64,000 bases of DNA from Candidatus Zixiibacteriota bacterium (GTDB lineage Bacteria; Zixibacteria; MSB-5A5; GN15; JAAZOE01), in the NCBI GenBank assembly GCA_043819555.1, contig JBDREQ010000063.1, positions 64,001 through 128,000 of the forward strand. Reading direction: 5' to 3'. How positions within the stretch are numbered: the stretch's first letter is position 1; every line of letters begins with the position of its first letter. Below the pieces are notes generated by a model. The model had not been told where the DNA came from. It searched no databases and saw nothing but the letters and a program-made list of their open reading frames with translations. The position numbers were made by a program, and so were the translations under genes. Positions 1,368-29,705 of the stretch are shown here, one piece after another.

Positions 1368-1420
1368 ATCTTAAGCTGCGATTACGGGCGGTTCATGTTA
1401 TATGCGACCGCCCATTTTAT

Positions 1421-1768
1421 TCAATAATCCCCGCGTTTGGGAACAATACAAATCATCACAAAATCATCATCGTTTGGATTTGAATATTGATGCTCGGTGT
1501 TGGGTGGCACGAAAGCGAATGCGCCTTGGGATAATTCATGTTTTACGCCGTCAATTTCCACATTCCCCTTACCCGAAATAATATAATTGACATGTTCCCA
1601 ATCATGACTATGTTTGGGTGTGTGGCCATCCGGTTTCAGAGTAAAGACGCGAAGCGTATTTTCTTTCCAGCCCTCATCCGGTCCGATGGGAACCTGCTTG
1701 CAGACGTTGGCGATACCCTCTCCAGTAATTTCATCTTTCGTGATTTCATCTATGTGTTTGATGTACAA
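1421..1768 (-). CDS. Cupin domain protein
   Basis: HTPKHSHDWEH and VPPNTEHQYSN cupin motifs; AGGAGG precedes TTG at 1768, so start placed there rather than 1789. Confidence 0.85.
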   Translation of the reverse strand: MYIKHIDEITKDEITGEGIANVCKQVPIGPDEGWKENTLRVFTLKPDGHTPKHSHDWEHVNYIISGKGNVEIDGVKHELSQGAFAFVPPNTEHQYSNPNDDDFVMICIVPKRGDY

Positions 1769-1840
1769 TTTATTCCTCCTTGTGAGCATAGAAATATCTC
1801 TATGACTTCAAACGATCCCGAGACTATAATTGTTTGGATA

Positions 1841-1868
1841 AAAAAACCCCGCTCAAAAATAACGGGGT
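1841..1868 (-). terminator. Intrinsic terminator after dnaN
   Basis: ACCCCG...CGGGGT hairpin followed by a T-run on the minus strand. Confidence 0.6.
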
Positions 1869-1887
1869 CGTCAAATTTATTACCTCT

Positions 1888-3000
1888 TTATTCCGTCAAC
1901 CTAAGCGGCATCAAAAGGCAGAGATAGTCATCTTTCGGCGTTTCGGTTGAATAAATAATTCCGGCCGCAACCGGGCTGGATAATTCAAATATAACTTCAT
2001 CGCTGTCAATCTTATTCAAAATATCAGCCACATACCCGGCGTTATAACCGATTTCAATTGACTCTCCCTTATATTCACAAGGAAGATTTTCTTTGGCTTC
2101 ACCACCCACATCGGTGTTTGTCGTCGATAAATTAAGCTTATTATTCTTTACCCCGAATTTCACCTGATGGGTCAGGGAATTGGACAGAATTGATACGCGC
2201 CTGACTGAAGAAGATAAATCGCTGCGCGAGATTATCATCTTTTTATCCGAGTTGCTCGGGATGACGGCCTCAAAGTTGGGATATGGCCCCTCGATTAAGC
2301 GAGAACTTACGATAGTATCGCCGAGGTTAAAAATTATCCTATTTTCTTCAAATATTATTCCCACGCTCTCTTCGTCATCGCCGATAAACTTAGGTATAAG
2401 ATCCAGAACCTTTGGGGGGATAATTACATCATCATTAAGGCCTTTTAATTTTTTGTTTTCCATCGCGACGCGAGCCAGCCGATGACCGTCGGTTGCCACC
2501 ATCATCATCCGTTCGCTTTTAGTTTGCCATAATACGCCGTTAAGGGCCGGGCGAGTTTCATCATTACTGCAGGCGAAGGTGGTGCGCGTAATCATCTCAA
2601 CTAAAGATTTGGCGTCAACTTTAACCTGTTTTTTTAGGTTGATTGCGGGCAATTCGGGAAACTCGTCGGGGGAGATCGATCCTAATTTATAGTTACCGTT
2701 TGGGACTTTAAGCTCAACGCGGTTGGAGATACTCTCAAAGGAAATATCGGATTCGGGCAAATCCTTGACGATATCAAAAAGCATTCTTCCGGGAATAACC
2801 GCTGAACCCTTTTTACTTATATCGGCATCAAGAGTTGTTGTAATCGTGACATCAAGATCGGTGGCAGATATTTTTATTTTTTTCTCCAAACATTCCATAA
2901 GGATATTTGATAAAATGGGCAGAGTTGATTTTGAGGGGACTACCGTCAAAACCGATTGAAGATGTTTTGTCAATCTTGATTTGGGTAGTGAAAATTTCAT
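1888..3000 (-). CDS. dnaN: DNA polymerase III beta sliding clamp
   Basis: STLPILSNIL, SATDLD, VATDGHRLA, RLIEGPYPNF and LLMPLRL motifs; downstream of dnaA; start placed at MKFSL (3000). Confidence 0.97.
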   Translation of the reverse strand: MKFSLPKSRLTKHLQSVLTVVPSKSTLPILSNILMECLEKKIKISATDLDVTITTTLDADISKKGSAVIPGRMLFDIVKDLPESDISFESISNRVELKVPNGNYKLGSISPDEFPELPAINLKKQVKVDAKSLVEMITRTTFACSNDETRPALNGVLWQTKSERMMMVATDGHRLARVAMENKKLKGLNDDVIIPPKVLDLIPKFIGDDEESVGIIFEENRIIFNLGDTIVSSRLIEGPYPNFEAVIPSNSDKKMIISRSDLSSSVRRVSILSNSLTHQVKFGVKNNKLNLSTTNTDVGGEAKENLPCEYKGESIEIGYNAGYVADILNKIDSDEVIFELSSPVAAGIIYSTETPKDDYLCLLMPLRLTE

Positions 3001-3029
3001 ACGATGCTCCTTAATAAATCTTCTGGCGA

Positions 3030-3262
3030 TGCTATCCACACCATCTTATTATTTTATTCTCTTATATATCTAAAAAATAATAATAATTAGTCCTGTGGAT
3101 ATGTGGACAACAACACCTCAATCAATATAAACTCCGGTAAATATTGAGTTTTTCGTGCCCCTATAAGATACGGGGGGGGTGAAAATGATGTCAACAAGTG
3201 TTTTTTTCTCATAGCCTTATCAACACGAAAATTTTTTCTACTATTTCCACACATATTTCCAC
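3030..3262. other. oriC sub-region between dnaA and dnaN (DnaA boxes, DnaA-trios, AT-rich DUE)
   Basis: Tandem DnaA-box-like TGTGGATAT (3094-3102) and TGTGGACAA (3102-3110) next to TAATAATAATTAG trio-like repeats and an AT-rich tract; further boxes CTATCCACA (3032), TTATCAACA (3217), ATTTCCACA (3244). Confidence 0.85.
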
Positions 3263-3286
3263 TAATCTTTCAACCGGATACTCACC

Positions 3287-4666
3287 TTAGCTTGATAGGC
3301 TGTTTTGTATAGATTCCAACCTTCTTCGAAAGCCGCTATCAGACAAACTCATTTTCTCAACCAAATTACAGGCGTGGATTACAGTGCTATGGTCTCGCCC
3401 GCCAAATTCATCCCCAATCGCCTTTAATGAATTGCCGGTGAGATTTCGAGAAAGATACATGGCCACCTGGCGAGCCAGGGCTATATTCTGGGTCTTTTTT
3501 CGCGCTGAAAGCATATCAATCTCAATATCAAAACTATCGGAAACCTTCTTTTTAATGGCTTTGATTGAAACCGTCTTCCTGCGGGTTCGAAAAGTATCGG
3601 ACAAAACCTTCTCAGCCATCTCAAGATTCAGCTCCACGCCACGCAGAGAAGCGTAGGCCAGGATGCGGATCAGGGAACCCTCCAACTCACGGATATTAGT
3701 CGTTACCGAATCGGCAATGAACGATATAATATCCTCGCCGACGACAATACCTTCCGCCTCAACCTTGCGATTCAAAATTGCCATTCTGGTTTCAAGGTCA
3801 GGTGGCTGAATATCCGTCACTAGACCGCAGGAAAACCTCGACAAAAGGCGCTCTTCCATGCCCTTAATATCCTTGGGGGCGCGATCTGAGGTCAGGATAA
3901 TCTGCTTTCCCACATTGTGGAGAGTGTTGAAAGTATGGAAAAACTGTTCCTGGGTCGATTCTTTACCGGCGAAAAATTGGGTATCATCAATCAGCAAGGC
4001 ATCAACGTTGCGGTATCGGTTGACAAAATCGCTGGTCGTATTTCGAGAAATCGAATCGATGAATTCCGATGTAAACTTCTCCGAAGTCGCGTAAAGAATC
4101 CTCTTAGTCAAATCATTTTCGAGGATATAATGTCCAATCCCCTGAAGCAAATGAGTTTTGCCCAATCCCACCCCGCCATAAATATAGAGCGGGTTATACT
4201 TTGTTTTGCCGGGCGCTTCAGCTACCGCTAGGGAAGCGGCGTATGGGAATTGATTGAAATTTCCAACGACCAAGTTTTCAAAAGTATATCTGTCGTTGAG
4301 CATGCCGGCGCCATGATTACTTTTTCTTATGGCCGGAATGTCGGAAGATGAGAAATGCTCAATCGGTATCGATGTCCGGCGAAAATTAAATTCAGTCTGA
4401 CCAGAACCTTCGTGTTTTACTGTAAAGCAAAACGGAACGGTTTCTCCGATCGATTGAGTTATGGCTTCATCAATCAATCCAGAATAATGTTCTCCAATCC
4501 ATTCCGCTACAAACTGATTGGGGACAATAATTTGTAGCCCGCCATTGCTGTCCGATACACCCTTGGTCTGCTTCAACCAGGTGGCAAAAGACTGCTTTTT
4601 TACTCGCCGTGAAAGATACTGTAGACAATCATCCCATATTTTTTGGTGATCCCCTGAAATCGTCAT
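3287..4666 (-). CDS. dnaA: Chromosomal replication initiator protein DnaA
   Basis: YNPLYIYGGVGLGKTHLL Walker A, QEQFFHTFN, NIRELEG and GGRDHSTVIHA motifs. Confidence 0.99.
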   Translation of the reverse strand: MTISGDHQKIWDDCLQYLSRRVKKQSFATWLKQTKGVSDSNGGLQIIVPNQFVAEWIGEHYSGLIDEAITQSIGETVPFCFTVKHEGSGQTEFNFRRTSIPIEHFSSSDIPAIRKSNHGAGMLNDRYTFENLVVGNFNQFPYAASLAVAEAPGKTKYNPLYIYGGVGLGKTHLLQGIGHYILENDLTKRILYATSEKFTSEFIDSISRNTTSDFVNRYRNVDALLIDDTQFFAGKESTQEQFFHTFNTLHNVGKQIILTSDRAPKDIKGMEERLLSRFSCGLVTDIQPPDLETRMAILNRKVEAEGIVVGEDIISFIADSVTTNIRELEGSLIRILAYASLRGVELNLEMAEKVLSDTFRTRRKTVSIKAIKKKVSDSFDIEIDMLSARKKTQNIALARQVAMYLSRNLTGNSLKAIGDEFGGRDHSTVIHACNLVEKMSLSDSGFRRRLESIQNSLSS

Positions 4667-17017: not shown

Positions 17018-17215
17018 ATGGTAATCTGCATTGCGGTGTATCACCCGCCCTAATTCCTTTTAACCGGGCATTACAAAAAAATTAGCGTCGCCTGCCGTGT
17101 GATTTTTGTTTGCAATACCTGCACGGGGTACAGAGCACGGTATCGCGGGCATCAAACAGTCTAAGCGGCAAGCGGCACTGGATAATTTCATTTCTTGAAG
17201 AGGGAGGGAAAAAGT

Positions 17216-19660
17216 ATGGAACGGCTTTTTTTCTTCACGATTTTATTGACGGCTTGGTTTAGTTGCTCCGTTTATGGCGATAACATTCGGATAAACGGAC
17301 ATGTAATAGATGAAAATAATTTACCGATTGCGCGGGTAAACGTAAAATCTGGAAATATCGCACAAAACATTCAGACCGATGAAAACGGAAGCTTTTCGGT
17401 AATTGTCATTTCTTCTAGGCCAACGCGTTTAAATTTCTCGCATGCCGGTTATGTCCCGACATCTATTGATATCGAATCCGGAGAAAATAATATCGCTGTT
17501 ACTATGATTACCCAGATTCACCCGATGGATGGGATTACCGTGACCGCTGGCCGAGCCGTCATGGGTCAATCACCGGTATCTTTTCAAAATATTGACCGTG
17601 AGACAATCGACCGCGATATGGATATCGGTGAAATGCCCGAACTTCTCGATCTGACCCCCAACCTATATAGTTATTCCGATGCCGGAGGGGGGCTTGGTTA
17701 CAGCTACCTCAGTATCCGGGGATTCAATGCCCGCCGGGCTCCGGTTTATATCAACGGCATACCTCTCAACGATCCCGAAGACCATGCTCTTTATTTCATT
17801 GACCTGCCCGATTTCGCTTCCCATCTCGACAACGTCCAGGTCCAGCGAGGCGTCGGCAATTCTCTGTATGGCGATCCTTCGTTCGGAGGCTCGATCAATC
17901 TCCTGACCAGCGTTTTAACGCACGATCGGCAGGCCGTCATCACAGCCGGCTATGGCGGTTTCTGGCAGGACGGAAAAAATATTGGCTTGATGCGCAAGCA
18001 ATCAGTCTTTTATTCCAGTGGACTTTTGGATAATGGCTGGTCGTTATCAGGTCGATGGGTCAAACAATATTCCGACGGTTATCGCGAAAATTCATGGTAT
18101 GACGGCTCCGCCTTTTATCTGTCCCTCGGCCGCATTGATCCCGGGATGATAACAACGGTCAATATTTACGGCGGCCCGATAAAAACACACGCCGCCTGGG
18201 ATGGCATCGACCGACTTACCCTATCAATAAATCGTCGAGCCAATGAGTATACATATAGCAATGAAATCGATGATTTCAATCAACCGCACTTTGAGCTTCA
18301 CAATATCTATAACATCTCCGAAACAACGACGCTAAATAATACAATCTATCATATTCGCGGCAAAGGATTCTATGAGCAATTGAAAAGAGGCGAAGATTTA
18401 TTCGAATACAATTTGTCGGAAAACAGCGGAGGCTTGACAAGCGATTTGGTCCGTCGCAAATGGGTTGAGAAATATCAGACGGGCCTGAACAGTTATATTG
18501 ATTATGATGACGGGAAAAAACAGATTGTTCTCGGAGGATCGTATTACTTTTTTGAATCTGAGCACTGGGGCGAAGTTCTCTGGGCCGAAGAATTATCCCC
18601 CTCGAATCTCAACGAACAGTCACCGTTCAAATACTATGAATATTTTGGCAAATATCACAACATGTCAGCCTACGCGTCTTTGAATTATGCCTTTAATGAT
18701 CGCCTCAATCTATCCGGCAATCTTCAGGCTCGTTATCTTTATAAAAATATACACATTACTCCCCAGGGAATTTTTGATCCGACGATGTACATTCTTGACT
18801 GGTTGTTTCTATCTCCGCGCGTAGGAATTAATTATTCCCTCAATGAAAAATTGTCATCCTATTTCAGCTTCTCCATCGCTTCGCATGAACCAAATGACGA
18901 TATGATCGATGATGCCGACGACCCCTTTGATATTCCGCGGTTGAAAATCATAGATGATACTGCAACTCCAGTAGTGTATGGCGATGCCACCGTTGGTTCT
19001 GAACGAATCTATGATTTTGAATTAGGCGTCAATCACCGCGCTTCAAGATTGTCATTGGATGGCAATCTGTTCTGGATGGAGTACCGCAATGCTCTCGTCC
19101 CTGATGGGGGATTAACCGATGACGGACTTCCTACCTATGGCAACGCCGAACGATCACTGCATCGAGGATTGGAATTAGCCGGGGTGTATAAAATTCAAAA
19201 CAGCCTGCGAATCGAAGGCAATATCGCTCTCAATGATTTCTGGATTAAAGAATACAGCCAGCATAACTGGGATGGCACGACCACCCGGCATCGCAACGTG
19301 GCCACACCCAATTTCCCCAAATATATCACTAACCTGACTTTCGATTATTCAATCAGCGCTTTCGAATTCGTTTATCGCGTCCGAGCCGTAGGCCGCCAGT
19401 TTATTTCACTCGATGGCCGTCATACCGATGTCAAAAACGAATCGGTTGATATATCGATTGCCCCCTTTACCATCTCATCCTTGAAGGCTGTCATAAATCT
19501 GGGAAGTTTGTTAAATGGAACCAATTTTCAATTGGAAAGCCGAATTAATAATCTCTTCAATGAAAAATATGAAACTTTTGGGTATCGCTGGGAGAATTAT
19601 TTCGCCTACTGGCCGGCCGCCGAGAGAAACTGGTTCGTAAATTTGAAAATGACGATATAA
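17216..19660 (+). CDS. TonB-dependent receptor, probable thiamine or precursor uptake
   Basis: Signal peptide, plug motifs (LSIRGF, YINGIPLNDPE, QVQRGVG), C-terminal NNLFNEKY...RNWF; under the TPP riboswitch. Confidence 0.9.
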   Translation: MERLFFFTILLTAWFSCSVYGDNIRINGHVIDENNLPIARVNVKSGNIAQNIQTDENGSFSVIVISSRPTRLNFSHAGYVPTSIDIESGENNIAVTMITQIHPMDGITVTAGRAVMGQSPVSFQNIDRETIDRDMDIGEMPELLDLTPNLYSYSDAGGGLGYSYLSIRGFNARRAPVYINGIPLNDPEDHALYFIDLPDFASHLDNVQVQRGVGNSLYGDPSFGGSINLLTSVLTHDRQAVITAGYGGFWQDGKNIGLMRKQSVFYSSGLLDNGWSLSGRWVKQYSDGYRENSWYDGSAFYLSLGRIDPGMITTVNIYGGPIKTHAAWDGIDRLTLSINRRANEYTYSNEIDDFNQPHFELHNIYNISETTTLNNTIYHIRGKGFYEQLKRGEDLFEYNLSENSGGLTSDLVRRKWVEKYQTGLNSYIDYDDGKKQIVLGGSYYFFESEHWGEVLWAEELSPSNLNEQSPFKYYEYFGKYHNMSAYASLNYAFNDRLNLSGNLQARYLYKNIHITPQGIFDPTMYILDWLFLSPRVGINYSLNEKLSSYFSFSIASHEPNDDMIDDADDPFDIPRLKIIDDTATPVVYGDATVGSERIYDFELGVNHRASRLSLDGNLFWMEYRNALVPDGGLTDDGLPTYGNAERSLHRGLELAGVYKIQNSLRIEGNIALNDFWIKEYSQHNWDGTTTRHRNVATPNFPKYITNLTFDYSISAFEFVYRVRAVGRQFISLDGRHTDVKNESVDISIAPFTISSLKAVINLGSLLNGTNFQLESRINNLFNEKYETFGYRWENYFAYWPAAERNWFVNLKMTI

Positions 19661-19666
19661 TATCTC

Positions 19667-21052
19667 ATGATAAGCTGGTTTGACAGCGGACTTATTTATC
19701 TCTATCTGGCCACGCTATTTGTTTTCGCCCTGATTGGACTTAAACAGAAAAACGGCTCTCGCGAAAACCTGATTTTGGCCGGCAGACGCCTCACTCTTCC
19801 GGCTTTTGTCGCCACTCTCGTATCCACCTGGTACGGAGGCATCCTCGGCGTCGGGGAGTTCTCGTACCTCCACGGCATTTCCAATTGGCTTGTCTTCGGC
19901 GTACCCTACTATCTCGCGGCCGCAATCTTCGCGATATTTCTGGCCAAACGAGCCCGCTCATCGCCCGAAATAACTATCCCGGATAGACTATACAAATTTT
20001 ACGGTCCCGCCGCTTCAGCCGCCGGATCATCAATCCTCATTATCGTCACCCTGCCCGTTGCCTATGTTCTCATGGTCGGCGTTTTGTTAAAAATTATTTT
20101 CTTTATCCCGATCTGGGTCGGCATAGTCGCGGGAACGTTTTTCTCCGTAGCCTATGTAATGACCGGCGGTTTCCGCGCTGTTATATGGACTGACGTCCTT
20201 CAATTCATCCTGATGTTTGTCGGTTTTATAATTCTTTTGGTTTTCTGTTTTACCTCATACGGCGGTTTTGAATACTTAAAAATAAATCTGCCCGACGCCC
20301 ACTTTACCGCTTCGGGAGGAAACAGCGCCGGATACATCGCTCTCTGGTATATTATCGCGCTGGCGACATTGGTTGAACCGGCTTTTTATCAACGATGTTT
20401 CGCGGCTAAATCCGAAGCCGTCGCGCGTAAAGGTATCCTTGTCTCGATTTTGTTCTGGATTATTTTCGATTTTATGACAACCTCATGCGGCCTCTATGCT
20501 CGGGCCATTCTGCCCAATCTCGATAATCCCGTCGCCGCCTATCCGTCTCTGGCAATGACAATCCTTCCCGCCGGTTTTCTCGGTATTTTCCTTTTGTCGC
20601 TTCTGGCGACAATTATGTCAACCGTCGATTCCTATATGTTTTTGACCGCCACCACCATCAGCCATGATTTGTTCTGGAGATTCAAAAAATTCGATGAGCA
20701 AAAAATAGGACAGTACACTACCTTTGGGCTTCTGATATCATCCATCGGAACAATCGGTATCGCCATTATTTCCGATTCGGTCGTGGATATCTGGCATGAT
20801 TTCGGTTCGGTCGGCACTTCGGCATTACTCCTCCCCCTTCTGACATCTTACTGGGGCAAATACAAATTCTCCAATCGCGGCGCCCTGCTATCCATCATCC
20901 TTTCCTCACTATTGACCGCTTCAGCATTATTCTATCCCGGCCTCTCCGGTCAGAGCGACTATCTCTTTGGTATTGAACCGATCTTTATCGGGCTATGCAC
21001 ATCAATTATGATATTTGTTATAACCAGAACAAAAAAAACCATGTTCTTATAA
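19667..21052 (+). CDS. Sodium:solute symporter family protein, probable thiamine or precursor importer
   Basis: LAGRRL, STWYGG, GGFRAVIWTD, YQRCFAAKS, ATIMSTVDS; 6 nt after the TonB receptor gene. Confidence 0.9.
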   Translation: MISWFDSGLIYLYLATLFVFALIGLKQKNGSRENLILAGRRLTLPAFVATLVSTWYGGILGVGEFSYLHGISNWLVFGVPYYLAAAIFAIFLAKRARSSPEITIPDRLYKFYGPAASAAGSSILIIVTLPVAYVLMVGVLLKIIFFIPIWVGIVAGTFFSVAYVMTGGFRAVIWTDVLQFILMFVGFIILLVFCFTSYGGFEYLKINLPDAHFTASGGNSAGYIALWYIIALATLVEPAFYQRCFAAKSEAVARKGILVSILFWIIFDFMTTSCGLYARAILPNLDNPVAAYPSLAMTILPAGFLGIFLLSLLATIMSTVDSYMFLTATTISHDLFWRFKKFDEQKIGQYTTFGLLISSIGTIGIAIISDSVVDIWHDFGSVGTSALLLPLLTSYWGKYKFSNRGALLSIILSSLLTASALFYPGLSGQSDYLFGIEPIFIGLCTSIMIFVITRTKKTMFL

Positions 21053-21186
21053 AGTTGTCCTATTTTTAGATGAAGCAAAATTAGATACGATATTCATTAG
21101 CCCAAAAGAACTCTGCCTCTTATCATTTATAGCATGTTGACAAACCCTTACTATGATTATACGTTGAGATATTAGAAAGTTGAATC

Positions 21187-21567
21187 ATGTTGAAACGCAC
21201 GATAAAATACTCGATCGCTTTTTTATTTCTCGTTCTGATGATAATCTCGTGCGAGGAATCTTTTGAACCCGACCAGCCAGTCGCACCAATCGTCAAAAAC
21301 CAAAGTCCGGCCATTACCAGCATGAGCAGCAGCCGGACAAACGTTCCCATGACTGGATTCGTCGTATTCAGCTGCAAAGCGAAGGATCCCTATGGCGATT
21401 CACTCTTTTTCCTGTGGTCGAGTCAGGCCGGCACCTTTCCTGCCGGTGAATCGGGGAATCCCGTTACCTGGCAGGCGCCGGAAGTTGAAGGACTTCAAAT
21501 CATTAAAGTTATTGTTTCCGACAGCCTGCACCAAATCTCCGATAGCATTTCTGTTATCGTTGAATGA
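21187..21567 (+). CDS. Lipoprotein with Ig-like domain
   Basis: Lipobox IISC; NQSPAI..., DP.GD.L.F.W, VTWQAP pattern. Confidence 0.7.
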   Translation: MLKRTIKYSIAFLFLVLMIISCEESFEPDQPVAPIVKNQSPAITSMSSSRTNVPMTGFVVFSCKAKDPYGDSLFFLWSSQAGTFPAGESGNPVTWQAPEVEGLQIIKVIVSDSLHQISDSISVIVE

Positions 21568-21728
21568 CAATTGTACAATTCAGAACTTCTTTTCAATCCT
21601 AATCCAAACCTGATTTTCACCTTTCTAATATTTTGAAGTCTGACAATTTTTACCACCCACATCACTGTCAATATCTGACATATATATAATTGTCAATATG
21701 CGATATGTAAGTATTATGATAATTTCAC

Positions 21729-21757
21729 TTGACATTGACAATTTGTCTATGTATATT
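21729..21757 (+). promoter_or_regulatory. Sigma70-type promoter of the radical SAM operon
   Basis: TTGACA (21729-21734), 17-bp spacer, TATATT (21752-21757). Confidence 0.6.
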
Positions 21758-21813
21758 CTGTTCAAGCTGGAGCTTTACTTTAGTTTGCGCCTGGGGATCC
21801 GTTCGGGGAAGTT

Positions 21814-23166
21814 GTGCAAAAATCTAAATTCAATATTCTTAAGGTCATCGGCGACTATATTTATCTTTATAACGGCCTCACCTGGTCGGTTATTCGTTTT
21901 CCAAATGAGTTTGAACCGCTGATTTATAATATTCTTGACTTCCCGGAAGCGGTCAATGGCTCAAAAGAAATTCAGCTAACCAAAGACATTCTTTATGGCA
22001 ATGGCTTTCTAATCGATGATGATAAGAGCGAAATGGAGTTGCTTAAACAACGATACAATTACGCCAAAAATCATCAAAATTATTGTGCTCTCCAGATCGC
22101 TGTTACGATGCAATGCAATTTTGCCTGTCCTTATTGCTATGAGAATGAGGAAAACAGTTCACTCTCAGCTCAGACACAGGATGCCATCATTAATTATATC
22201 GCCCGCAATATCGATAAATGGGACAGATTATGCCTCGACTGGTTTGGAGGTGAACCTCTGCTGCGGCCAGATATAATCAGGAATTTAAGCAACCGGGCCA
22301 TGGAATTATGCAAAATATCAAAAACGGAATATTTATCAACCATCATAACCAATGGTTATCTCTTAAATAAAAAAAACCTGGAGCTCCTTGAAAAATACCG
22401 CGTGCGTGAAATTCAAGTGACTCTAGACGGCGGACGAAAAACACATGATTCGCGGAGATTTCTCAAAAACGGCAAAGGAACTTTTGATACAATTGTAAAT
22501 AACCTGATTCTGGGAGCAGATATATTTGACAAAATAATAGTCCGTGTCAATATTGAAGGTCAAAGACCAGATGATATATCAGAATTATTCGTCCGCCTCA
22601 ATCCCATAAAGGACAAATTACATATAGGATTTATGCCAATCCAGACAACAGTCGAATGCGACGGACATTCCAATAACTACGCATCTTTTCGACGGGAAAA
22701 TTACAGTTATGGCCGTTTAATTGATTCTCACGGATTTAATCCGTCGGTTACTCACACTCCACCCGGTGGATTATTCTGTGCCGCTTACAATAATAATTTT
22801 CTGCTAATAGATCCCAAAGGAAACCTCTACCGCTGCACTGTTATGGCGGGGAAAACTGAATACCGGATAGGATATTTGCAGGATGATGGAACGATTAAAA
22901 AAACATCAGACCAATCGCCGCACTTGGAATTTGATCCGTTTGAAGACAAAGACTGCAAAGTATGCGATCACCTTCCGATTTGCATGGGGGGATGTATTAA
23001 TATGCCACTTTCGGATAAATCAAATTCAGGCCGGTGCATAATTAAAGATACGGTGCCTTCCTATCTGAGCTCGATAGCCCAAAAATATGAAAATCTCAAA
23101 TCTGTCAAAGGAGGTGATGATGATAACAACCGTACCGGGAACATTTTTAAGGGAAATGTCATTTGA
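21814..23166 (+). CDS. Radical SAM/SPASM domain peptide maturase
   Basis: CNFACPYC, WFGGEPLL, TNGYLL, QVTLDG...HDSRR; SPASM C...IDPKGNLYRC...CKVCDHLPICMGGC; ~85-aa N-terminal extension possibly an RRE. Confidence 0.92.
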   Translation: MQKSKFNILKVIGDYIYLYNGLTWSVIRFPNEFEPLIYNILDFPEAVNGSKEIQLTKDILYGNGFLIDDDKSEMELLKQRYNYAKNHQNYCALQIAVTMQCNFACPYCYENEENSSLSAQTQDAIINYIARNIDKWDRLCLDWFGGEPLLRPDIIRNLSNRAMELCKISKTEYLSTIITNGYLLNKKNLELLEKYRVREIQVTLDGGRKTHDSRRFLKNGKGTFDTIVNNLILGADIFDKIIVRVNIEGQRPDDISELFVRLNPIKDKLHIGFMPIQTTVECDGHSNNYASFRRENYSYGRLIDSHGFNPSVTHTPPGGLFCAAYNNNFLLIDPKGNLYRCTVMAGKTEYRIGYLQDDGTIKKTSDQSPHLEFDPFEDKDCKVCDHLPICMGGCINMPLSDKSNSGRCIIKDTVPSYLSSIAQKYENLKSVKGGDDDNNRTGNIFKGNVI

Positions 23167-23347
23167 TGCGGCAAAAGAATTGGGAAAAAAATATGCCATT
23201 TATATGGCCAGCTTCAGGGCCGAGATAATTAATGAAGGCCTTAGCGAGCATGAAGCAATGTTTTTACTGAATAGAATTGCAGTGAGCTGTACCCCTGGCT
23301 ACATGGAGACCGTTGGTCTCCCCGAAATCAGAGCCCTCGATAAATAA
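23120..23347 (+). CDS. Small protein, putative radical SAM substrate/precursor A (75 aa)
   Basis: GGAGG RBS; ungapped paralog of 23474-23701; overlaps the rSAM 3' end. Confidence 0.8.
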   Translation: MITTVPGTFLREMSFDAAKELGKKYAIYMASFRAEIINEGLSEHEAMFLLNRIAVSCTPGYMETVGLPEIRALDK

Positions 23348-23473
23348 ACGACACCTTTGAAAAATCATATCCAGTGTTCAGGAGATAAAACCTGGTTGAA
23401 AAATAATACTCCATTTTTTGAATTCGATGGCCAATAAATATGAACCACAAATTTGCCAAAGGAGGTGATGACG

Positions 23474-23701
23474 ATGGTTGCAAAAATGCCGGGGATGGCC
23501 CTGAGAGAATTGTCAAGTGATGCGATTCGGGAAATGGCCAAGAAATATGCCGCCTATATGGCCACCTTTCGCGCTGAGATCATCAAAGAAGGTCTTAGCG
23601 AACTTGAAGCAAGCGCCCTATTGGATAGTGTTGCCCACAGCTGCGGCGATGGTTTCATGCGGACAGCCAGCCCTCTCGAAATGAGAACACTCGATCAATA
23701 A
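23474..23701 (+). CDS. Small protein, putative radical SAM substrate/precursor B (75 aa)
   Basis: Same AAAGGAGGTGATGA RBS context; 42/75 identities to precursor A by hand alignment. Confidence 0.8.
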   Translation: MVAKMPGMALRELSSDAIREMAKKYAAYMATFRAEIIKEGLSELEASALLDSVAHSCGDGFMRTASPLEMRTLDQ

Positions 23702-23713
23702 TTCGTTGCTCAG

Positions 23714-23749
23714 AGGTTATATCTGGTATCCGCCAGATATAACCTGTTT
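23714..23749 (+). terminator. Hairpin/terminator after precursor B
   Basis: AGGTTATATCTGG-N6-CCAGATATAACCT perfect 13-bp stem. Confidence 0.7.
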
Positions 23750-23783
23750 GTAGGACTATATTCTATTGTAAGGAGTAATTGAG

Positions 23784-23933
23784 ATGTCTAAGGAAAAAAT
23801 AAATTGGGAAACTGATATAAAAAAAGGATTGGAAGACGCCAAAAACATCAAAGATATCAAGTTACCCTTGAAACAGGACTCGGATCGCAGGAAAATTGAC
23901 GGCTTTAATCCCGGTGATGTCGGCAAGAAATGA
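23784..23933 (+). CDS. Small hypothetical protein (49 aa), not in the ORF track
   Basis: AAGGAG RBS, ATG at 23784; MSKEKINWETDIKKGLEDAKNIKDIKLPLKQDSDRRKIDGFNPGDVGKK. Confidence 0.6.
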   Translation: MSKEKINWETDIKKGLEDAKNIKDIKLPLKQDSDRRKIDGFNPGDVGKK

Positions 23934-24131
23934 CAATGGCATTAAACAGGGATATATCTTCATAAATATTATGAAACAAATTGGCGCTTGTCCCCCTTGC
24001 GCCGGTTTTAATCAAGGCAGGAGCATGGGGGAAGGCTCCTGCTTGTATAATTCTTTCTTGTTATAACGATATATTGCGGTCATTTATATTTAAGTGCTTG
24101 CATAGAAACTGAATTTAAAATCAGATCAAGG

Positions 24132-24407
24132 CTACTTCTTCTTACTCCTAATCCTCGCTTCGCGGAATTGCGCTCGCGCTCGACCGGCGGCGACCGCCAT
24201 AACTATCGATTGAACTGCCCCCAATTCTTCATCAGAAATTCCTTCTTCTTTGGCGACGCCAAAGTAATGCTCCATTCATGGATAACAACCAAGCGAAATA
24301 GCCGACGCCAGATGCAGCATCAACGTTGTTTTCGGCTTCAGAATTTCATTGTATCGAGCCGAATCATAAAAATCCTTATATGCCTTAAGTTGTTTATCCG
24401 GTAACAT
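24132..24407 (-). CDS. CMD/AhpD-like selenoprotein (CxxU), 91 aa
   Basis: GGAG RBS; MLPDKQ...LHLASAISLGCYP-U-MEHYFGVAKEEGISDEELGAVQSIVMAVAAG; TGA at 24276-24278 in the second Cys position of the CMD CxxC motif. Confidence 0.88.
24248..24264 (-). promoter_or_regulatory. SECIS-like hairpin of the CMD-like selenoprotein
   Basis: Perfect CUUUGGC-GUC-GCCAAAG 17-nt stem-loop starting 11 nt after the UGA, G at first loop position. Confidence 0.75.
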
Positions 24408-24433
24408 CTTTATCTCCAATCATTACTACCTTG

Positions 24434-25456
24434 TTATTCCTTAAAATAATATATTTTCTCCGGATCGATCGTCAATGTCACCTTTTGGCCGGGTGATAAT
24501 TGCCACGTGTGATTATCAACCGTCACCGTCAGGGTCAGGCTATTTGTTTTCACTCTCAGGTAACTTACCGACCCGATGTATTCAATTGCCTCGACAATTC
24601 CCTCGATGCCGCTGTCGCCTCCGAGGGTGATATGCTCCGGCCTTATCCCTATTGTATAATGCCCATCTTTGACATCCGGGCCGAATTTTATCGGCAGTTT
24701 CTTGCCCATCCCACCTGAAAGTCTATCCTCATATAGATTAATCGGCGGCGTCCCGATAAACGATGCCACAAACTTATCTGCCGGGCGTTCATAAATCTCA
24801 GCCGGCGTACCTTGCTGGTGAATAATTCCGTCTTTGATAACAACCATCTTATCGGCCATCGTCAGCGCCTCGGTCTGATCATGTGTCACATAAATCATCG
24901 TTACGCCGATTTTCTTCTGCAATGCGACGATCTCCCGCCGCATCTTGAGCCGCAAAGCGGCATCCAGATTCGAAAGCGGCTCATCAAGCAAAAATATCGA
25001 CGGCTCTCTGATAAGACCTCGCCCCAATGCGACCCGTTGTCTTTGTCCTCCCGACAGCTGCGCCGGCCTTCGATTCAAAAACTCATCGAGCTCAAGTAGC
25101 GTCGCCGTCTCCGCTACTGCTTTTTTAATATTATCCTTCGATGTTTTGGAAACTCTAAGAGGAAAAGCGATATTATCAAACACCGTCATGTGAGGATACA
25201 GCGCATAATTCTGAAATACCATCGCTGTTTTACGCTTTTGAGGCTCAAGGCCGGTAATATCTTTCCCATCGAGAAAAATCTGCCCCGCATCAGGGAAATC
25301 CAGCCCGGCGACCAATCTGAGTATTGTCGATTTACCGCACCCGGAAGGCCCCAGTACCACTAACAGCTCGCCCGATTTGACTTCCAGGTTGATATCTCTC
25401 AGGACAACATTGCCATCAAACGACTTAGTTACATTTTTTATTTCAAGTCCAGACAT
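24434..25456 (-). CDS. ABC transporter ATP-binding protein (MalK/UgpC-like)
   Basis: GPSGCGKST, VFQNYALYPHM, LSGGQRQRVA, LLDEPLSNLDA, TOBE-like C-terminus. Confidence 0.95.
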   Translation of the reverse strand: MSGLEIKNVTKSFDGNVVLRDINLEVKSGELLVVLGPSGCGKSTILRLVAGLDFPDAGQIFLDGKDITGLEPQKRKTAMVFQNYALYPHMTVFDNIAFPLRVSKTSKDNIKKAVAETATLLELDEFLNRRPAQLSGGQRQRVALGRGLIREPSIFLLDEPLSNLDAALRLKMRREIVALQKKIGVTMIYVTHDQTEALTMADKMVVIKDGIIHQQGTPAEIYERPADKFVASFIGTPPINLYEDRLSGGMGKKLPIKFGPDVKDGHYTIGIRPEHITLGGDSGIEGIVEAIEYIGSVSYLRVKTNSLTLTVTVDNHTWQLSPGQKVTLTIDPEKIYYFKE

Positions 25457-25457
25457 C

Positions 25458-26561
25458 TCATCTTTCAGTTACAATACCTTCCGATATATAAAACAATTTC
25501 GCTTTCTTCAAAAGCGGCTCCGGCGGCTCGACCGCCGTCGTCAAAAATACTTGCTTGAACTGTTTGAATAACCCGGCCACATTTTCCCGACGCAACGGAT
25601 CCAGTTCGGCGAAAATCTCATCAAGAAGCAAAATCGGTTTTTCATGAGTGCGGCTCTCGAGAAAATTGGCCGTCGCCATCATCACCGCAATCGCCGCACT
25701 GCGCTGTTCGCCCATCGAGCCGTATCCTTTAGCCGGAAAACCGCCGATTTGGAAATCAATATCATCCCGATGAGGTCCGACTATGGCGGTCTCTAAAATA
25801 GCCTCTTTCTGACGGCCCGCGTTTATTTTTTGTTCAAACTGCTTTTCAATTTCGCCAAAATCATTATACTCGACGTTAGGCAAATATCTCAGTGTAAATG
25901 ACGGCAACCCGTCCGACGTTTTCTGCCCTGCAATCTGAGCGTAGTACCCGGGAGCCAGCGCTTGCAGAAAATGCATAAATCGATGCCGCGCGACCATAAT
26001 CTTCGCCCCCAGTTGGACCATCAATGGATCAAACGGACATTCATCGTCCGATCCGTTTTTCAAAAACGAATTTTTCTGCGCCAATGCTTTATTATAATCG
26101 CCTAAATCTGCCAGATAGCTCGGTGAGGCCTGCGACAGGTACAAATCCAAAAATCGCCGACGCCCCGAAGGCGATCCCGAAAACAAAGTAACATCCTCGG
26201 GTGCCATCGAAATTAAATGAAAAAGTTGATATAGTTTCGACATCCGCACCGGGTTTTCATCAACCGTAATTTTCTTGCGCCCGCCTGCCTGATACGCGCA
26301 AGCAATCCCGGTCGCAGATTTCTCATTACCCAGGTACCCGATCCCCTCCAGCCGAAAGAAATCCTCATCGCCTTCCCGAACCATCATCACATCGCGCGCC
26401 CCGCGTTGAGATCGTCCCAAACAGAGAGTGAATATCGCCTCCAGCAAATTGGTTTTCCCGGCGGCGTTCTTGCCATAAAAGATATTTATTCCCGCGCTTG
26501 GCTGTAATTCGGCCCGGCCAAAGTTGCGAAAGTTGGTCAATGCTAAAAACTCTAATCTCAT
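25458..26561 (-). CDS. recF: DNA replication/repair protein RecF
   Basis: NFRNF, GKNAAGKTNLLEA, RRRFLD, GPHRDD, GSMGEQRS, PILLLDEIFAELD. Confidence 0.96.
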   Translation of the reverse strand: MRLEFLALTNFRNFGRAELQPSAGINIFYGKNAAGKTNLLEAIFTLCLGRSQRGARDVMMVREGDEDFFRLEGIGYLGNEKSATGIACAYQAGGRKKITVDENPVRMSKLYQLFHLISMAPEDVTLFSGSPSGRRRFLDLYLSQASPSYLADLGDYNKALAQKNSFLKNGSDDECPFDPLMVQLGAKIMVARHRFMHFLQALAPGYYAQIAGQKTSDGLPSFTLRYLPNVEYNDFGEIEKQFEQKINAGRQKEAILETAIVGPHRDDIDFQIGGFPAKGYGSMGEQRSAAIAVMMATANFLESRTHEKPILLLDEIFAELDPLRRENVAGLFKQFKQVFLTTAVEPPEPLLKKAKLFYISEGIVTER

Positions 26562-26646
26562 GCCGTCAAACTAACAAAACCAAATCAAAAACGAAAGCAA
26601 TTTCAAGCCGGGCTTGCGCAGAAACTTTTCATGTTTATATTATCTT

Positions 26647-27603
26647 ATGCCTTGCCATGTTCATTTACTTCAGGACTTCGATGACGGCTGGATCAAAGAG
26701 TTTTCAACCTGCCTCGATTCATCGATCACTATTACCACCGACCCCGATGTGTCTTCTACTGCCAATATCCTCATCTCCGGATCGCCCGAAGCAAAACATC
26801 TGGAGGCATCAAAAATCCTGACGACCCTTGTTATTCCCTGGGCCGGGCTCCCCAAAGCTACCCGAGTGCTAATGAAAGATTATCCCCATATCGCCATATA
26901 TAATATCCATCATAACGCCGCTGTCGTCGCCGAACATGCCGTTGCGATGATGATGGCGTCGGCTAGAAATCTAATCCCGACCGATAAAATCTTTCGCACC
27001 AATGACTGGTCGCCCCGCTACGATAAAACTTCAATATTTCAACTAAAGGGAAAAACGGCGCTAATCTTAGGCCATGGCGCCATCGGAAAGCAAATAGCAA
27101 AAATCTGCCGGACGCTGGGGATGAAAGTTGCTGGATTAAAAAGGGACTTTGATATGGCGGAGGGAACTTATTCAACAGCCGAATTGCCTGCATTCCTCCC
27201 CAAAACCAATGTGCTATTTATCTGCCTTCCGCTGACCCCCGAAACACTTGGGATGATTGGCAAAAAAGAACTATCGCTTCTGCCAGATAATGCGATAATA
27301 GTAAACATTGGCCGTGGAGCAGTTATTCAGGAAGAAGCCCTGTACAGCGAATTAAAATCAGGCCGCCTTCGGGCAGGACTCGATGTTTGGTATCAGTATC
27401 CTAAGAAAGAAAAAATATGGAGCGTTTATCCGCCCTCGAAATTCGATTTCGCGTCGCTCGAAAATGTCATCATGACTCCGCATCTCGCCGGGCATTCGGA
27501 TTTAGTTGAAGAAGATCGCATCGCACAACTGGCCGAACTGATAAACAACCTCGCATCGGGGAAGAAGCCAAAAACCAAAATCGATATTAACCGAGGCTAC
27601 TAA
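26647..27603 (+). CDS. D-isomer-specific 2-hydroxyacid dehydrogenase family protein
   Basis: VAEHA, GHGAIG, LPLTPET, VNIGRG, GLDVW, MTPHLAG; start codon uncertain (26614-26647). Confidence 0.88.
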   Translation: MPCHVHLLQDFDDGWIKEFSTCLDSSITITTDPDVSSTANILISGSPEAKHLEASKILTTLVIPWAGLPKATRVLMKDYPHIAIYNIHHNAAVVAEHAVAMMMASARNLIPTDKIFRTNDWSPRYDKTSIFQLKGKTALILGHGAIGKQIAKICRTLGMKVAGLKRDFDMAEGTYSTAELPAFLPKTNVLFICLPLTPETLGMIGKKELSLLPDNAIIVNIGRGAVIQEEALYSELKSGRLRAGLDVWYQYPKKEKIWSVYPPSKFDFASLENVIMTPHLAGHSDLVEEDRIAQLAELINNLASGKKPKTKIDINRGY

Positions 27604-27626: not shown

Positions 27627-28388
27627 ATGATATCCAATCCCGTAATCGACGCCATGATGAATCGCAAATCGCTTCGCAAATACTCAGGCGAAATGCCCTC
27701 CGATGAAGTCATCGAAACCATCGTCCGGGCCGGACAGCAAGCTCCGTTCGCGGCGCAGGCCTGTTCGCTTCTTCTAAAACGTGGCGACAAAAAGATACCC
27801 TTCAAAGCACCCCTGCTTTTTACCATCTGCGTTGATCGCCATAAGCTCGCGCTTATCCTGAAAAAACGAAACTGGGAAATGAAATCGTGCGATCTTATGA
27901 TGCTTCTCTTTGGCCTGCAGGATGCCGTTCTCATGGCTGAAAATATCGTCATCGCCGCCGAAAGCCTCGGGATGGGTAGTTGCTTTTTGGGCCATCCGCC
28001 CATTACCGCGCGAGCTATCAAAAGAAGTTACAAACTCCCCGACGGAGTTTATCCGATCGTCCAGCTCACCGTCGGCTATCCCGCCGAAGACGAACCGACC
28101 CGCCCGCGCTATCCGCTCGACTATTTTTTATTCGAAGACGAATATCCCGAATTTTCTGACGAGACGATTGAAAAAGCCATGAAAGTTATGGACGAAGGTT
28201 ATCTTGCTCAGGACTATTACCGCGATCCCGACATCAAGATTATGCTCGAAGGGGGCCGCGAGGAGACGTTTACCTATGACAATTACAGTTGGACCGAACA
28301 CATGGGCCGCAAATGGGGCCAATGGTGGTCCGAACCCGACAAACTCCTCGAGAACTTAAAAGCATGTGGGTTTGATATTGGGGGATGA
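27627..28388 (+). CDS. Nitroreductase family protein
   Basis: RKSLRKY, AGQQAP, IAAESLGMGSCFLG, LTVGYP. Confidence 0.9.
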   Translation: MISNPVIDAMMNRKSLRKYSGEMPSDEVIETIVRAGQQAPFAAQACSLLLKRGDKKIPFKAPLLFTICVDRHKLALILKKRNWEMKSCDLMMLLFGLQDAVLMAENIVIAAESLGMGSCFLGHPPITARAIKRSYKLPDGVYPIVQLTVGYPAEDEPTRPRYPLDYFLFEDEYPEFSDETIEKAMKVMDEGYLAQDYYRDPDIKIMLEGGREETFTYDNYSWTEHMGRKWGQWWSEPDKLLENLKACGFDIGG

Positions 28389-28447
28389 TTATTTAATGGA
28401 CAAACAGCTATTGAATTTGTTTAATTTAGGATAATGGGGAGAATATT

Positions 28448-28951
28448 TTGGCAGTAGAATTAACCGATAAGGAAATAAATGGCCTTATAAGTGAAAAAAA
28501 AGTATTACCTGATAATTATCGGAAAAAATTGAAAAATTATCGAAGTAAACGGGGCCATTATCAGAGTGAACTTGAAATAAAAGGGGATAAGGGTAGTTCG
28601 TTTTATATCATGATTAGATTAAATCAGATAAACAAATTAGATTTTTCGGCAATATTGGCATACGAAATGCCCAAAAAACAAAAGAGGTTTTTGCTGAAAC
28701 GTTATAATGGTAAACATTTTCATCGTAACACTTTGGAAAAAGAAGATTTATATGATTTTCATGTTCATGAAGCAACGTAACAGTATCAAGAATTAGGTGC
28801 CAAGGAGGAGACTTTTGCTGTCGCCTCTAATAAATTTACGAATGTTGATGCGGCATTACAATGTATGATAGATGAATGTCATTTTGTATTGCCTTTAAGC
28901 GAAAAACAACAATACAATTTAGGTTTTGATGATGACGGCCGAAAACATTGA
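28448..28951 (+). pseudogene. Hypothetical (DUF6978-like) gene interrupted by an in-frame TAA
   Basis: TAA at 28778-28780; frame stays open 56 more codons (QYQELGAKEETFA...) to TGA at 28949-28951, overlapping the next gene start; family name from memory. Confidence 0.65.
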
Positions 28952-29705
28952 AATATCATTCAAGAAAAAAGTATGCGATGAAATAAGTTTATTCCAAGAG
29001 GGTATTGGAAGATATGTAGTATATACACCATTTCAATTTGATGATGGTGATCATTTACATATTGTATTATTTAATCAAGGAGATAAATGGTACTTTTCAG
29101 ATGAAGGGCATACTTTCATGCATTTATCCTATCATATGGATATTAAATCTCTTGACACCGATACTAGGCAGGGAATAATAACTGATTCGTTAGCCTATTT
29201 TGGTGTTTGTGACAAGGGTGGAGAGTTGTTGCTAAATATTAAAGGTTCCAAATTTGGGGATTCATTATACAGCTATGTGCAAGCATTGTTGAAAATTACC
29301 GATATTTCCTTTTTACAAAAGGACCGTGTAAGGTCAACATTTTTAGAGGATTTTCGTTTGTTTTTTGAAGAAAACGTTTCAGAAGACAGGAGGGAATTTG
29401 ATTGGTTTAACGATAAGAAGGATCCAAGTGGGAACTACACAGTGGATTGCAGAATTAATGGGATGAGTTCTCCAATTATGGTGTTTGCTCTCCCAAATGA
29501 TCAGAATACCCACATTGCTACAATTACTTTATTAAAATTTGAAAAATGGGATATGAGGTTTAGGTCAATGGCCATCTTTGAAGATCAAGAAAAAATAGGC
29601 AGAAAACCACTAGCCAGATTTACTGATGTCTGCGAAAAACAATATTCTAGTCTTTCATCCAATACTGATAGAATTAAGGATTATTTAATAAATAATATCA
29701 AATGA
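28926..29705 (+). CDS. DUF1828/DUF1829-like protein
   Basis: [29 protein letters not shown] motifs; AT-rich islet. Confidence 0.7.

Follow-up and report, generated by a model that had tools for sequence, protein, structure and literature searches.

Structure of the gene cassette

The analyzed window, a stretch of 64,000 nucleotides (nt) of contig JBDREQ010000063.1 (positions 64,001 to 128,000, forward strand) from the Candidatus Zixiibacteriota assembly GCA_043819555.1, contains a compact cassette composed of one gene for a radical S-adenosylmethionine (rSAM) enzyme with a SPASM domain and two downstream genes for paralogous 75-aa proteins, designated below as peptides A and B (Table 1). An earlier note, made from the letters of this DNA, regarded them as an rSAM/SPASM maturase with two precursor-like proteins; all the tests run agree with this view, and the cassette is a real and well-delimited one. 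We read it as a minimal operon of the kind that encodes RiPPs (peptides made on the ribosome and modified after translation), comprising one maturase and two tandem precursors, in which the only cysteine of the peptides, Cys57, is likely engaged in a thioether bond; the probability of this reading as a whole is estimated by us at roughly 0.6.

The start of the enzyme gene at 21814 is backed by homologues beginning at the same point (M-K-x-S-x-Y). The open reading frame (ORF) of peptide A opens with an ATG at 23120, 5 nt past an AGGAGG box, and overlaps the rSAM gene by 47 nt, while ORF B starts at 23474, 8 nt past a box of its own. Both the overlap and the second ORF were found exactly where the earlier note had placed them, and the ribosome-binding context is indeed shared, as an identical 15-nt string, CAAAGGAGGTGATGA, occurs upstream of the two ORFs. 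The public gene call for A (P0002) starts at Met13, which gives a 63-aa product and an 11-nt overlap with the rSAM gene; the 75-aa form is favored here because residues 1–12 are conserved with the paralogue B and with an outside relative, P0129. The C-terminus of the rSAM protein, K-G-G-D-D-D, is encoded by the same DNA that carries the Shine-Dalgarno site and the overlap, and the homologue P0004, of 73% identity, retains it, which suggests the same coupled gene arrangement there.

The gapless identity of 42 residues out of 75, previously counted by hand, was reproduced by BLASTP (E 3e-29). The DNA differences between A and B are distributed over the codon positions as 24 first, 20 second and 34 third, and the Nei-Gojobori estimates (dN 0.32; dS 1.58, which is saturated) give a dN/dS of about 0.20; therefore, A and B are under purifying selection and are real coding genes. 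A hairpin does follow ORF B, as had been noticed before, its stem measuring 14 bp and not 13 bp. None of 200 shuffles folds as well as this hairpin; its U tract is weak, and it is absent from the terminator-scan list. The promoter-like site in front of the enzyme gene is a consensus match only, the region containing 17 such sites versus 10.1 ± 3.2 in shuffles. No known RNA was recognized in positions 20900–24500 by the Rfam search (E up to 1). The whole arrangement is the classic precursor layout, in which paralogues stand in tandem and their translation is coupled to that of the enzyme gene.

Table 1. Features of the cassette and of the surrounding islet (window coordinates)
Feature	Position	Strand	Basis or remark
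Radical SAM/SPASM peptide maturase gene, 450 aa, GTG start	21814..23166	+	Pfam, NCBIfam, CteB and AF2 (AlphaFold2) matches
N-terminal RRE-like domain (RRE, RiPP precursor recognition element), ~residues 1–90	21814..22083	+	AF2 secondary structure, block pLDDT (predicted local distance difference test) 71–91
Radical SAM cluster motif C101-x3-C105-x2-C108	22114..22137	+	Invariant in 123/123 aligned homologues
SPASM cysteines C322-x13-G336-x4-C341, C381-x2-C384-x5-C390-x3-C394, C408	22777..23037	+	
Precursor-like peptide A, 75 aa, leader ~1–56, core from Cys57 (S-C-T-P-G-Y-M...)	23120..23347	+	
Peptide B, precursor-like; 75 aa; identity with A 56%; core S-C-G-D-G-F-M...	23474..23701	+	
AGGAGG box (Shine-Dalgarno) serving gene A, within the rSAM gene at its 3' end	23109..23114	+	
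Shine-Dalgarno AGGAGG of peptide gene B	23460..23465	+	
14-bp hairpin closing the operon (terminator or 3' stabiliser)	23714..23745	+	dG -24.9 kcal/mol, z -4.76
Promoter-like site TTGACA, 17 nt, TATATT, 11/12 matches	21729..21757	+	57 nt upstream of the rSAM start
Variable islet with the cassette	21038..24135	.	Flanks shared with G151, interior replaced
126-aa lipoprotein-like ORF in the islet	21187..21567		Link to the system not shown
49-aa ORF in the islet	23784..23933		Link to the system not shown

The radical SAM/SPASM enzyme

The enzyme scored 62.6 bits with the Pfam model Radical_SAM PF04055 (cut-off 29.5) and 49.7 bits with the NCBIfam SPASM model TIGR04085 (cut-off 27), and it belongs to both the superfamily and the SPASM group. 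The seven cysteines of SPASM domains follow the formula C-x9-15-G-x4-C, gap, C-x2-C-x5-C-x3-C, gap, C; among the 123 aligned homologues, 122 or 123 retain each of the seven present in the window enzyme, and all 12 members of the clade described below have them. Sixteen positions are conserved in this clade and occur in fewer than 30% of the 111 other homologues, among them G318 and Y325, which flank the SPASM cysteine C322.

The closest solved relative by the clade profile is CteB (E 2e-29, positions 16–398), which is also the best Foldseek match of the enzyme model (E 3e-18), the next structural neighbors being TigE, ChlB, SuiB and anSME (E 1e-11 to 1e-13) and SkfB (6EFN, E 5e-11). The AF2 model of the enzyme (pLDDT 73, predicted template modeling score 0.74) begins with three strands (residues 7–12, 15–20 and 25–30) succeeded by three helices (31–42, 51–62 and 73–86), and the CteB profile alignment, starting at position 16, reaches this N-terminal part. 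The domain is referred to here as RRE-like, on the basis of the predicted fold and the CteB alignment; an RRE is a PqqD-like winged helix, built of three strands and three helices, to which the leader binds.

With the named maturase families of NCBIfam the enzyme gained partial scores (bits/cut-off): Clo7bot 219/600, TIGR04463 216.1/525, CefB 172/600, FlmE/OhkG 152/500, geopeptide 152/400, PapB (NF047865) 147/340, SCIFF (TIGR03974) 101.6/425, and QhpD 83.4/453. It is below the cut-off of every named maturase family and thus a member of none; the best-scoring named relatives are all peptide maturases, most of them named for Cys-containing peptides. Such partial scores are what can be said in favor of the cassette being a diverged member of a named system (SCIFF, a Nif11/NHLP-type system, mycofactocin, PQQ, Clo7bot or TIGR04463), which we nevertheless consider highly improbable: all the family scores are far under their cut-offs, the peptides match no described precursor in the searches presented in the next section, and their 75 residues include a single Cys, as against six in 45.

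The family of 75-aa peptides

No Pfam family was matched by the peptides at or above the cut-off (E up to 0.1), and none of the NCBIfam precursor models was matched at E up to 10 by the six family members scanned, in line with the earlier opinion that they are not the known SCIFF, Nif11, NHLP, mycofactocin or PQQ precursors. The ESM Atlas provided no usable match, the structural neighbors being generic helical fragments, and a word-index search with the single peptide A returned its own record only. A hidden Markov model of A and B, compared with 1.84 billion representatives, gave five matches at E ≤0.001, namely B and four proteins of 71–74 aa; the profile of those six, compared with 5.8 billion clusters, gave 11 matches: besides A and B themselves, nine further proteins were retrieved (P0124 to P0132), including a truncated 49-aa form.

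In all ten full-length members M1, G40, E43, C57, G60 and M62 are invariant, so that the cysteine described before as invariant in A and B is invariant among these members too. The family is defined here by a length of 71–76 aa, a leader of helical structure, a C-x-x(x)-G-x-M core behind it (both present in all full-length members) and a gene located directly downstream of a clade rSAM gene; A and B carry all these features. Beyond the Met three subgroups are distinguished: the window type, ending with E-x-R-x-L-[DN]-x, a second, shorter one, and a third ending with M-C-x-I-x-T. The acceptors suggested for a crosslink in the earlier note, Thr64, Glu69 or Tyr/Phe61, did not hold up across the family, as Thr64 is kept in A and B only, Glu69 in A, B and P0129 only, and position 61 is occupied by Tyr, Phe, Asn, Ala, Val or Thr. 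In the AF2 model of the peptide, helices 15–38 and 43–56 are succeeded by a low-confidence, disordered tail from residue 57, which fits a leader followed by a core with the border near residue 56, as was supposed previously. Judging by these sequence searches, the peptides constitute a new, unnamed and very rare precursor family. A C-x-x-G-x-M family is not described in those parts of the rSAM/SPASM RiPP literature that were available, no search having been aimed at the motif itself.

Enzyme clade and co-occurrence with the peptides

The closest homologues of the enzyme are P0004 and the proteins P0005 to P0013, the latter with 38–43% identity (E 1e-92 to 1e-111), after which the scores fall to E 1e-74 and below. 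In a FastTree phylogeny of 71 sequences, these homologues, the enzyme of the metagenome locus L027 and the window enzyme form a clade of 12 members with an SH-like (Shimodaira-Hasegawa) support of 95. The database search and co-occurrence check proposed in the earlier note turned out in its favor: besides the nine outside relatives of the peptides, a family peptide was seen with six of the 12 clade enzymes, the six being those with known context. For the window and for L027 the adjacency was read from the DNA itself; in the latter locus, the start of P0126 lies 22 nt past the stop codon of the 43%-identical clade rSAM gene. In the pairs P0004/P0129, P0009/P0124, P0012/P0125 and P0013/P0128 each protein is found on exactly one Logan contig, and the contigs of a pair are identical in size (9287, 3698, 1752 and 1967 nt, respectively) and source; if each pair shares one contig, the genes on the 1752- and 1967-nt contigs must be neighbors.

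The peptide profile was also applied to six-frame ORFs of the 186 loci listed, 179 of which contain rSAM relatives from other genomes or metagenomes, and strong matches were restricted to the window's own loci and L027. Next to the 178 more distant rSAM loci listed the peptide family was not found, save for a weak candidate at L107, where the gene of an enzyme with 37% identity that is not a clade member precedes a 37-aa ORF containing A-A-N-C-K-D-G-T-M. The listing of rSAM loci covers 12 and 16 of 64 parts in two scans, and the number of clade loci is a lower bound. Among 285 genomes of the phylum, the peptides were found in the window's genome only and in none of the 284 others, while rSAM relatives at ≤38% identity occur in 99 of the 285. 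Matches of the peptide profile in three of these genomes, G223, G224 and G233 (E 0.004–0.006), lie within an 826-aa ORF and were set aside as chance ones.

Predicted complex of the enzyme and the peptide

The enzyme (11-row alignment) and peptide A (10-row alignment) were co-folded together with S-adenosylmethionine (SAM) and three 4Fe-4S clusters. This check, also proposed in the earlier note, gave a score of 0.68 (0.70, 0.68 and 0.60 in separate runs) as compared with 0.00 for the best of three controls. Of the solved complexes in the calibration, 116 of 157 came up to that mark, as did two of 215 mismatched pairs. The runs share at least 36% of contacts, with the partner pLDDT being at least 45. 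In the predicted complex, residues 31–41 of the peptide, the most conserved block of the leader, sit on enzyme residues 23–30 and 52–64, that is, on strand three and on one helix of the RRE-like domain, the interface within this domain being formed by residues 15–36 and 52–64. Peptide residues 53–57 sit on enzyme residues 316–329, a patch which includes the clade-specific G318 and Y325, and Cys57 is placed beside the SPASM cysteine C322.

These predictions bear on the question of whether the small proteins are substrates at all; they might instead assist or regulate the enzyme as its partners, or be unrelated small helical proteins travelling with it. They are long for precursors (71–76 aa) and folded into a helical hairpin, and no protease or exporter adjoins the cassette. 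However, the translational coupling of two tandem paralogues to the enzyme gene, the location of the invariant residues in a disordered tail, and the predicted placement of the leader block on the RRE-like strand and of the cysteine at the cluster all argue against a non-substrate role; besides, long leaders and the lack of a protease or exporter have been described in other rSAM systems too, SCIFF among them (PMC8326336). Considering all this, a non-substrate role appears improbable, and the enzyme-substrate relationship very probable.

Proposed modification and its alternatives

According to the proposed mechanism, the peptide would consist of a helical-hairpin leader (residues ~9–56) and a flexible core starting at the sole cysteine. 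The leader block F-R-A-E-I-I-x-E-G-L-S-E would dock on the N-terminal RRE-like domain of the enzyme, and the core would thereby be delivered to the active site, with Cys57 near the auxiliary cluster held by C322. Upon reductive cleavage of SAM, the 5'-deoxyadenosyl radical would remove a hydrogen atom from a core residue close by, and the carbon radical so formed would be captured by the sulfur of Cys57, producing one intramolecular thioether (-2 Da). A thioether formed by Cys57 is, in our estimation, probable. Its partner can be named only tentatively. Since Cys57, Gly60 and Met62 are invariant in all ten full-length members, it is more likely to be Met62 or the turn at Gly60; with Met62 as the acceptor, the likeliest single choice though one below even odds, a six-residue ring around the invariant Gly60 would be closed through the alpha, beta or gamma carbon.

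A lead for the 57–62 pair comes from the locus L028, where an rSAM gene of the sister clade is followed by a gene for a 74-aa peptide with the tail A-H-S-N-G-D-G-K-C-R, as compared with A-H-S-C-G-D-G-F-M-R in peptide B. In this register the cysteine is therefore found at position 62 instead of 57, the two positions bounding one six-residue stretch; the register is gapless and was set by eye, whereas BLASTP joins the tails with a three-residue gap upstream of the motif.

The same gene pair might, however, perform another chemistry without a Cys thioether, Cys57 doing no more than holding the core at the auxiliary cluster; the product would then be a C-C or C-O crosslink, an epimerized residue, an oxidized Cys57 (as in anSME) or a changed Met62. 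The structural neighbors TigE, SuiB, ChlB and anSME, all within the Foldseek range given above, span several chemistries, a non-crosslinked cysteine touches the cluster in the CteB structure (PMC8326336), full-length similarity does not predict the chemistry of rSAM RiPP enzymes (PMC10288494), and an invariant Met would be unusual as a thioether acceptor. On the other hand, the best-scoring named families are Clo7bot, TIGR04463, CefB and PapB, of which CefB takes its name from Cys-bearing peptides and PapB is labelled a ranthipeptide (thioether) maturase; CteB, alone among the solved relatives in matching strongly by sequence, is a thioether synthase; and the lack of conservation at the aromatic position 61 speaks against a cyclophane. 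Another chemistry thus seems to be the less likely course, though one to be taken seriously, and we retain the Cys57 thioether as the preferred reading.

Several points weigh against that reading. The thioether is deduced from the invariant Cys and not from the enzyme, because some of the fold neighbors perform other chemistries, namely TigE (cyclopropylglycine), SuiB (C-C bond) and anSME (oxidation). No Pfam family, RRE and PqqD included, was found in enzyme residues 1–95. The co-fold may pass the calibrated mark through likeness to the solved enzyme-leader complexes (CteB, SuiB, ChlB), its custom alignments and riding ligands differ from those of the calibration, and the fold of the peptide within it is uncertain (pLDDT 45–54). 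One family member, P0129, reads C-C-K-G-N-G-N-M, with one extra residue between Cys and G-x-M, and the ring size is therefore not fixed. As for the co-occurrence, four of the six cases rest on matching contig size and source, not on read DNA, and the count leaves out the context of six clade enzymes and of P0127, P0130, P0131 and P0132. Finally, the peptide matches at L107 (11 bits, E 3.7e-5 with two sequences scored) and L028 (23 bits, E 8.8e-4 for 10 sequences compared) are weak.

Regarding the fate of the product, the earlier remark that no protease or exporter gene is adjacent to the cassette is true in the window and applies to L027 as well; therefore, the product may remain intracellular as a small modified protein, by analogy with what is discussed for SCIFF peptides. 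A bolder version, in which a hitherto undescribed crosslink between the sulfur of Cys57 and a side-chain (non-alpha) carbon of Met62 would occur in an uncleaved and unexported protein with a cellular role of its own, for instance in redox or metal handling or in signaling, is regarded by us as rather unlikely.

Comparison with known systems

The SCIFF system (ScfA/CteA with ScfB/CteB; PDB 5WGG, 5WHY) includes the nearest solved relative of the enzyme, CteB, the likeness extending to its N-terminal peptide-binding domain, and both SCIFF and the window cassette are two-component systems with no dedicated protease or exporter. In SCIFF peptides Cys32 is linked to Thr37, five residues apart (PMC8326336), a spacing equal to that of the proposed Cys57-Met62 pair, and in the CteB structure the substrate cysteine contacts the open iron of the SPASM cluster (PMC8326336). 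The differences are that the window peptide has 75 aa and one Cys, whereas SCIFF peptides have about 45 aa and six Cys, that the leader here is unrelated, forming a helical hairpin about 56 residues long, and that the distribution is extremely sparse in contrast to the clade-wide one of SCIFF.

The best-scoring named families, TIGR04334 (Clo7bot) and TIGR04463, align with the enzyme over nearly its full length, although far under their cut-offs, and the enzyme of the same-phylum locus L013 scores higher with both (337 and 303 bits). Precursors of the L013 type are short, Cys-rich and encoded upstream of the enzyme, whereas the window peptides are 75-aa, single-Cys and encoded downstream. No paper mentioning Clo7bot was found in a literature search.

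A single thioether to the alpha carbon of Met12 is described for SkfA (PMC8326336). One thioether to methionine is also what is proposed here, and SkfB is among the fold matches of the enzyme; still, SkfB is a more distant relative, and the Cys-Met spacing is 8 there versus 5 here. Genes for export, immunity and cyclisation are further parts of the skf operon, and the window cassette has none of them. NxxcA, modified by NxxcB, is a ranthipeptide in which a single Cys is joined to a nearby residue by one Cys-Asn beta-thioether (PMC8326336). This resembles the L028 peptide, which has Asn and Cys where the window peptides have Cys and Met; NxxcA differs by its i to i+3 spacing, its short peptide and its streptococcal quorum-regulated operon, and the NxxcB model is not among the best 25 of the 75 NCBIfam families matched by the enzyme. 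The precedent for a modified small protein as the product is QhpC, the gamma subunit of quinohemoprotein amine dehydrogenase, a small protein kept uncleaved, into which the rSAM/SPASM enzyme QhpD introduces Cys thioethers (PMC8326336); unlike in that system, no dehydrogenase genes adjoin the window cassette.

Another kind of arrangement was observed at other rSAM/SPASM genes of the phylum. At loci L009–L026 these genes are preceded by one to three short (31–41 aa) Cys-rich ORFs beginning with M-[IV]-Y-L-[IV]-D-P (M-I-Y-L-I-D-P type), most of which carry Y-G-[IV]-P near the end; examples are L013:1210-1323, L017:838-954 and 1148-1273, and L019:757-870 and 1020-1130. None of the NCBIfam models was matched by the three such ORFs scanned. 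By their sequences, they look like a second, widespread and unnamed precursor family. At L008:257-2634 (minus strand) two rSAM genes stand in tandem, the gene for a 424-aa RiPP-type maturase being directly followed by that for a 368-aa rSAM/SPASM protein.

Genomic islet and neighboring genes

A genome of the same genus, G151, aligns to the flanks of the cassette region (17197–21037 at 84% and 24136–27603 at 80%), while in place of the interior it possesses (L189, G151:C26:134800-139300, positions 1022–4078) a Fic gene, a gene for a 369-aa protein and a 204-aa ORF. The Fic/DOC protein encoded by the first bears a winged helix at its C-terminus, the 369-aa protein shows only a faint, sub-threshold Sir2 match, and the third, encoded on the minus strand, resembles a LysE-type exporter by eye only; the spot is variable and may hold defence-related cargo. 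The GC content inside the islet is 0.36–0.44 versus 0.45–0.50 in the adjoining genes. The replacement in G151 and the lower GC content thus indicate an accessory islet, and the cassette was probably acquired horizontally.

Apart from the cassette, the islet contains the 126-aa and 49-aa ORFs, neither of which has a homologue in the other loci (197 loci searched). The candidate system as delimited in the earlier note, with its end at 23933, took in the 49-aa ORF, which has no Pfam or NCBIfam match above cut-off and is not counted by us as a part of the cassette.

On the minus strand, at positions 24132–24419 of the window, two same-frame ORFs are split by one TGA; when read through, they give a 95-aa CMD/AhpD-like protein with a C-Y-P-U motif, in which the Pfam CMD match (3.2e-9) extends over residues 12–85 across the TGA. 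The in-frame stop at this site is kept in G151, with 83% identity on both sides, and the genome encodes selB (322 bits, cut-off 242); the protein is a probable selenoprotein, as far as can be judged from the sequence. The 7-bp hairpin after the TGA is no better than those of shuffles (z -0.61). This gene was considered as a part of the cassette and rejected in the window, as it lies in the flank conserved with the cassette-less G151. Another CMD/AhpD-like protein, with C-A-P-C, is encoded at L027:4032-4376 (minus strand), 1.2 kb upstream of the clade rSAM gene; the presence of CMD genes near both cassettes may be a coincidence. Further downstream, the region 28200–29700 of the window has a GC content of 0.31–0.36 versus about 0.47 around it and carries a 110-aa ORF without a family match and a gene for a 259-aa DUF1828 protein (1.6e-23); it may be another inserted element.

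Significance of the system

Systems of this kind are already well known, and many rSAM-peptide pairs are uncharacterised; the value of the present one consists in its being a well-delimited candidate, not a surprise. It most likely works in a manner like that of sactipeptides or ranthipeptides, classes defined by a thioether between a Cys sulfur and a carbon (alpha, or beta/gamma). The rSAM/SPASM maturases are a main source of new peptide chemistry, and new precursor families have tended to bring a new crosslink or ring topology. The family described here is rare, with nine relatives outside this genome among billions of proteins, and it is compact: one enzyme, a single-Cys peptide and three invariant core residues make it a tractable case for studying how the donor and the acceptor are chosen. 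It also bears on the question of whether RiPP cassettes without a protease or exporter modify small proteins that are kept in the cell; if this is true of the window cassette, it would be a protein-modification system instead of an antibiotic pathway.

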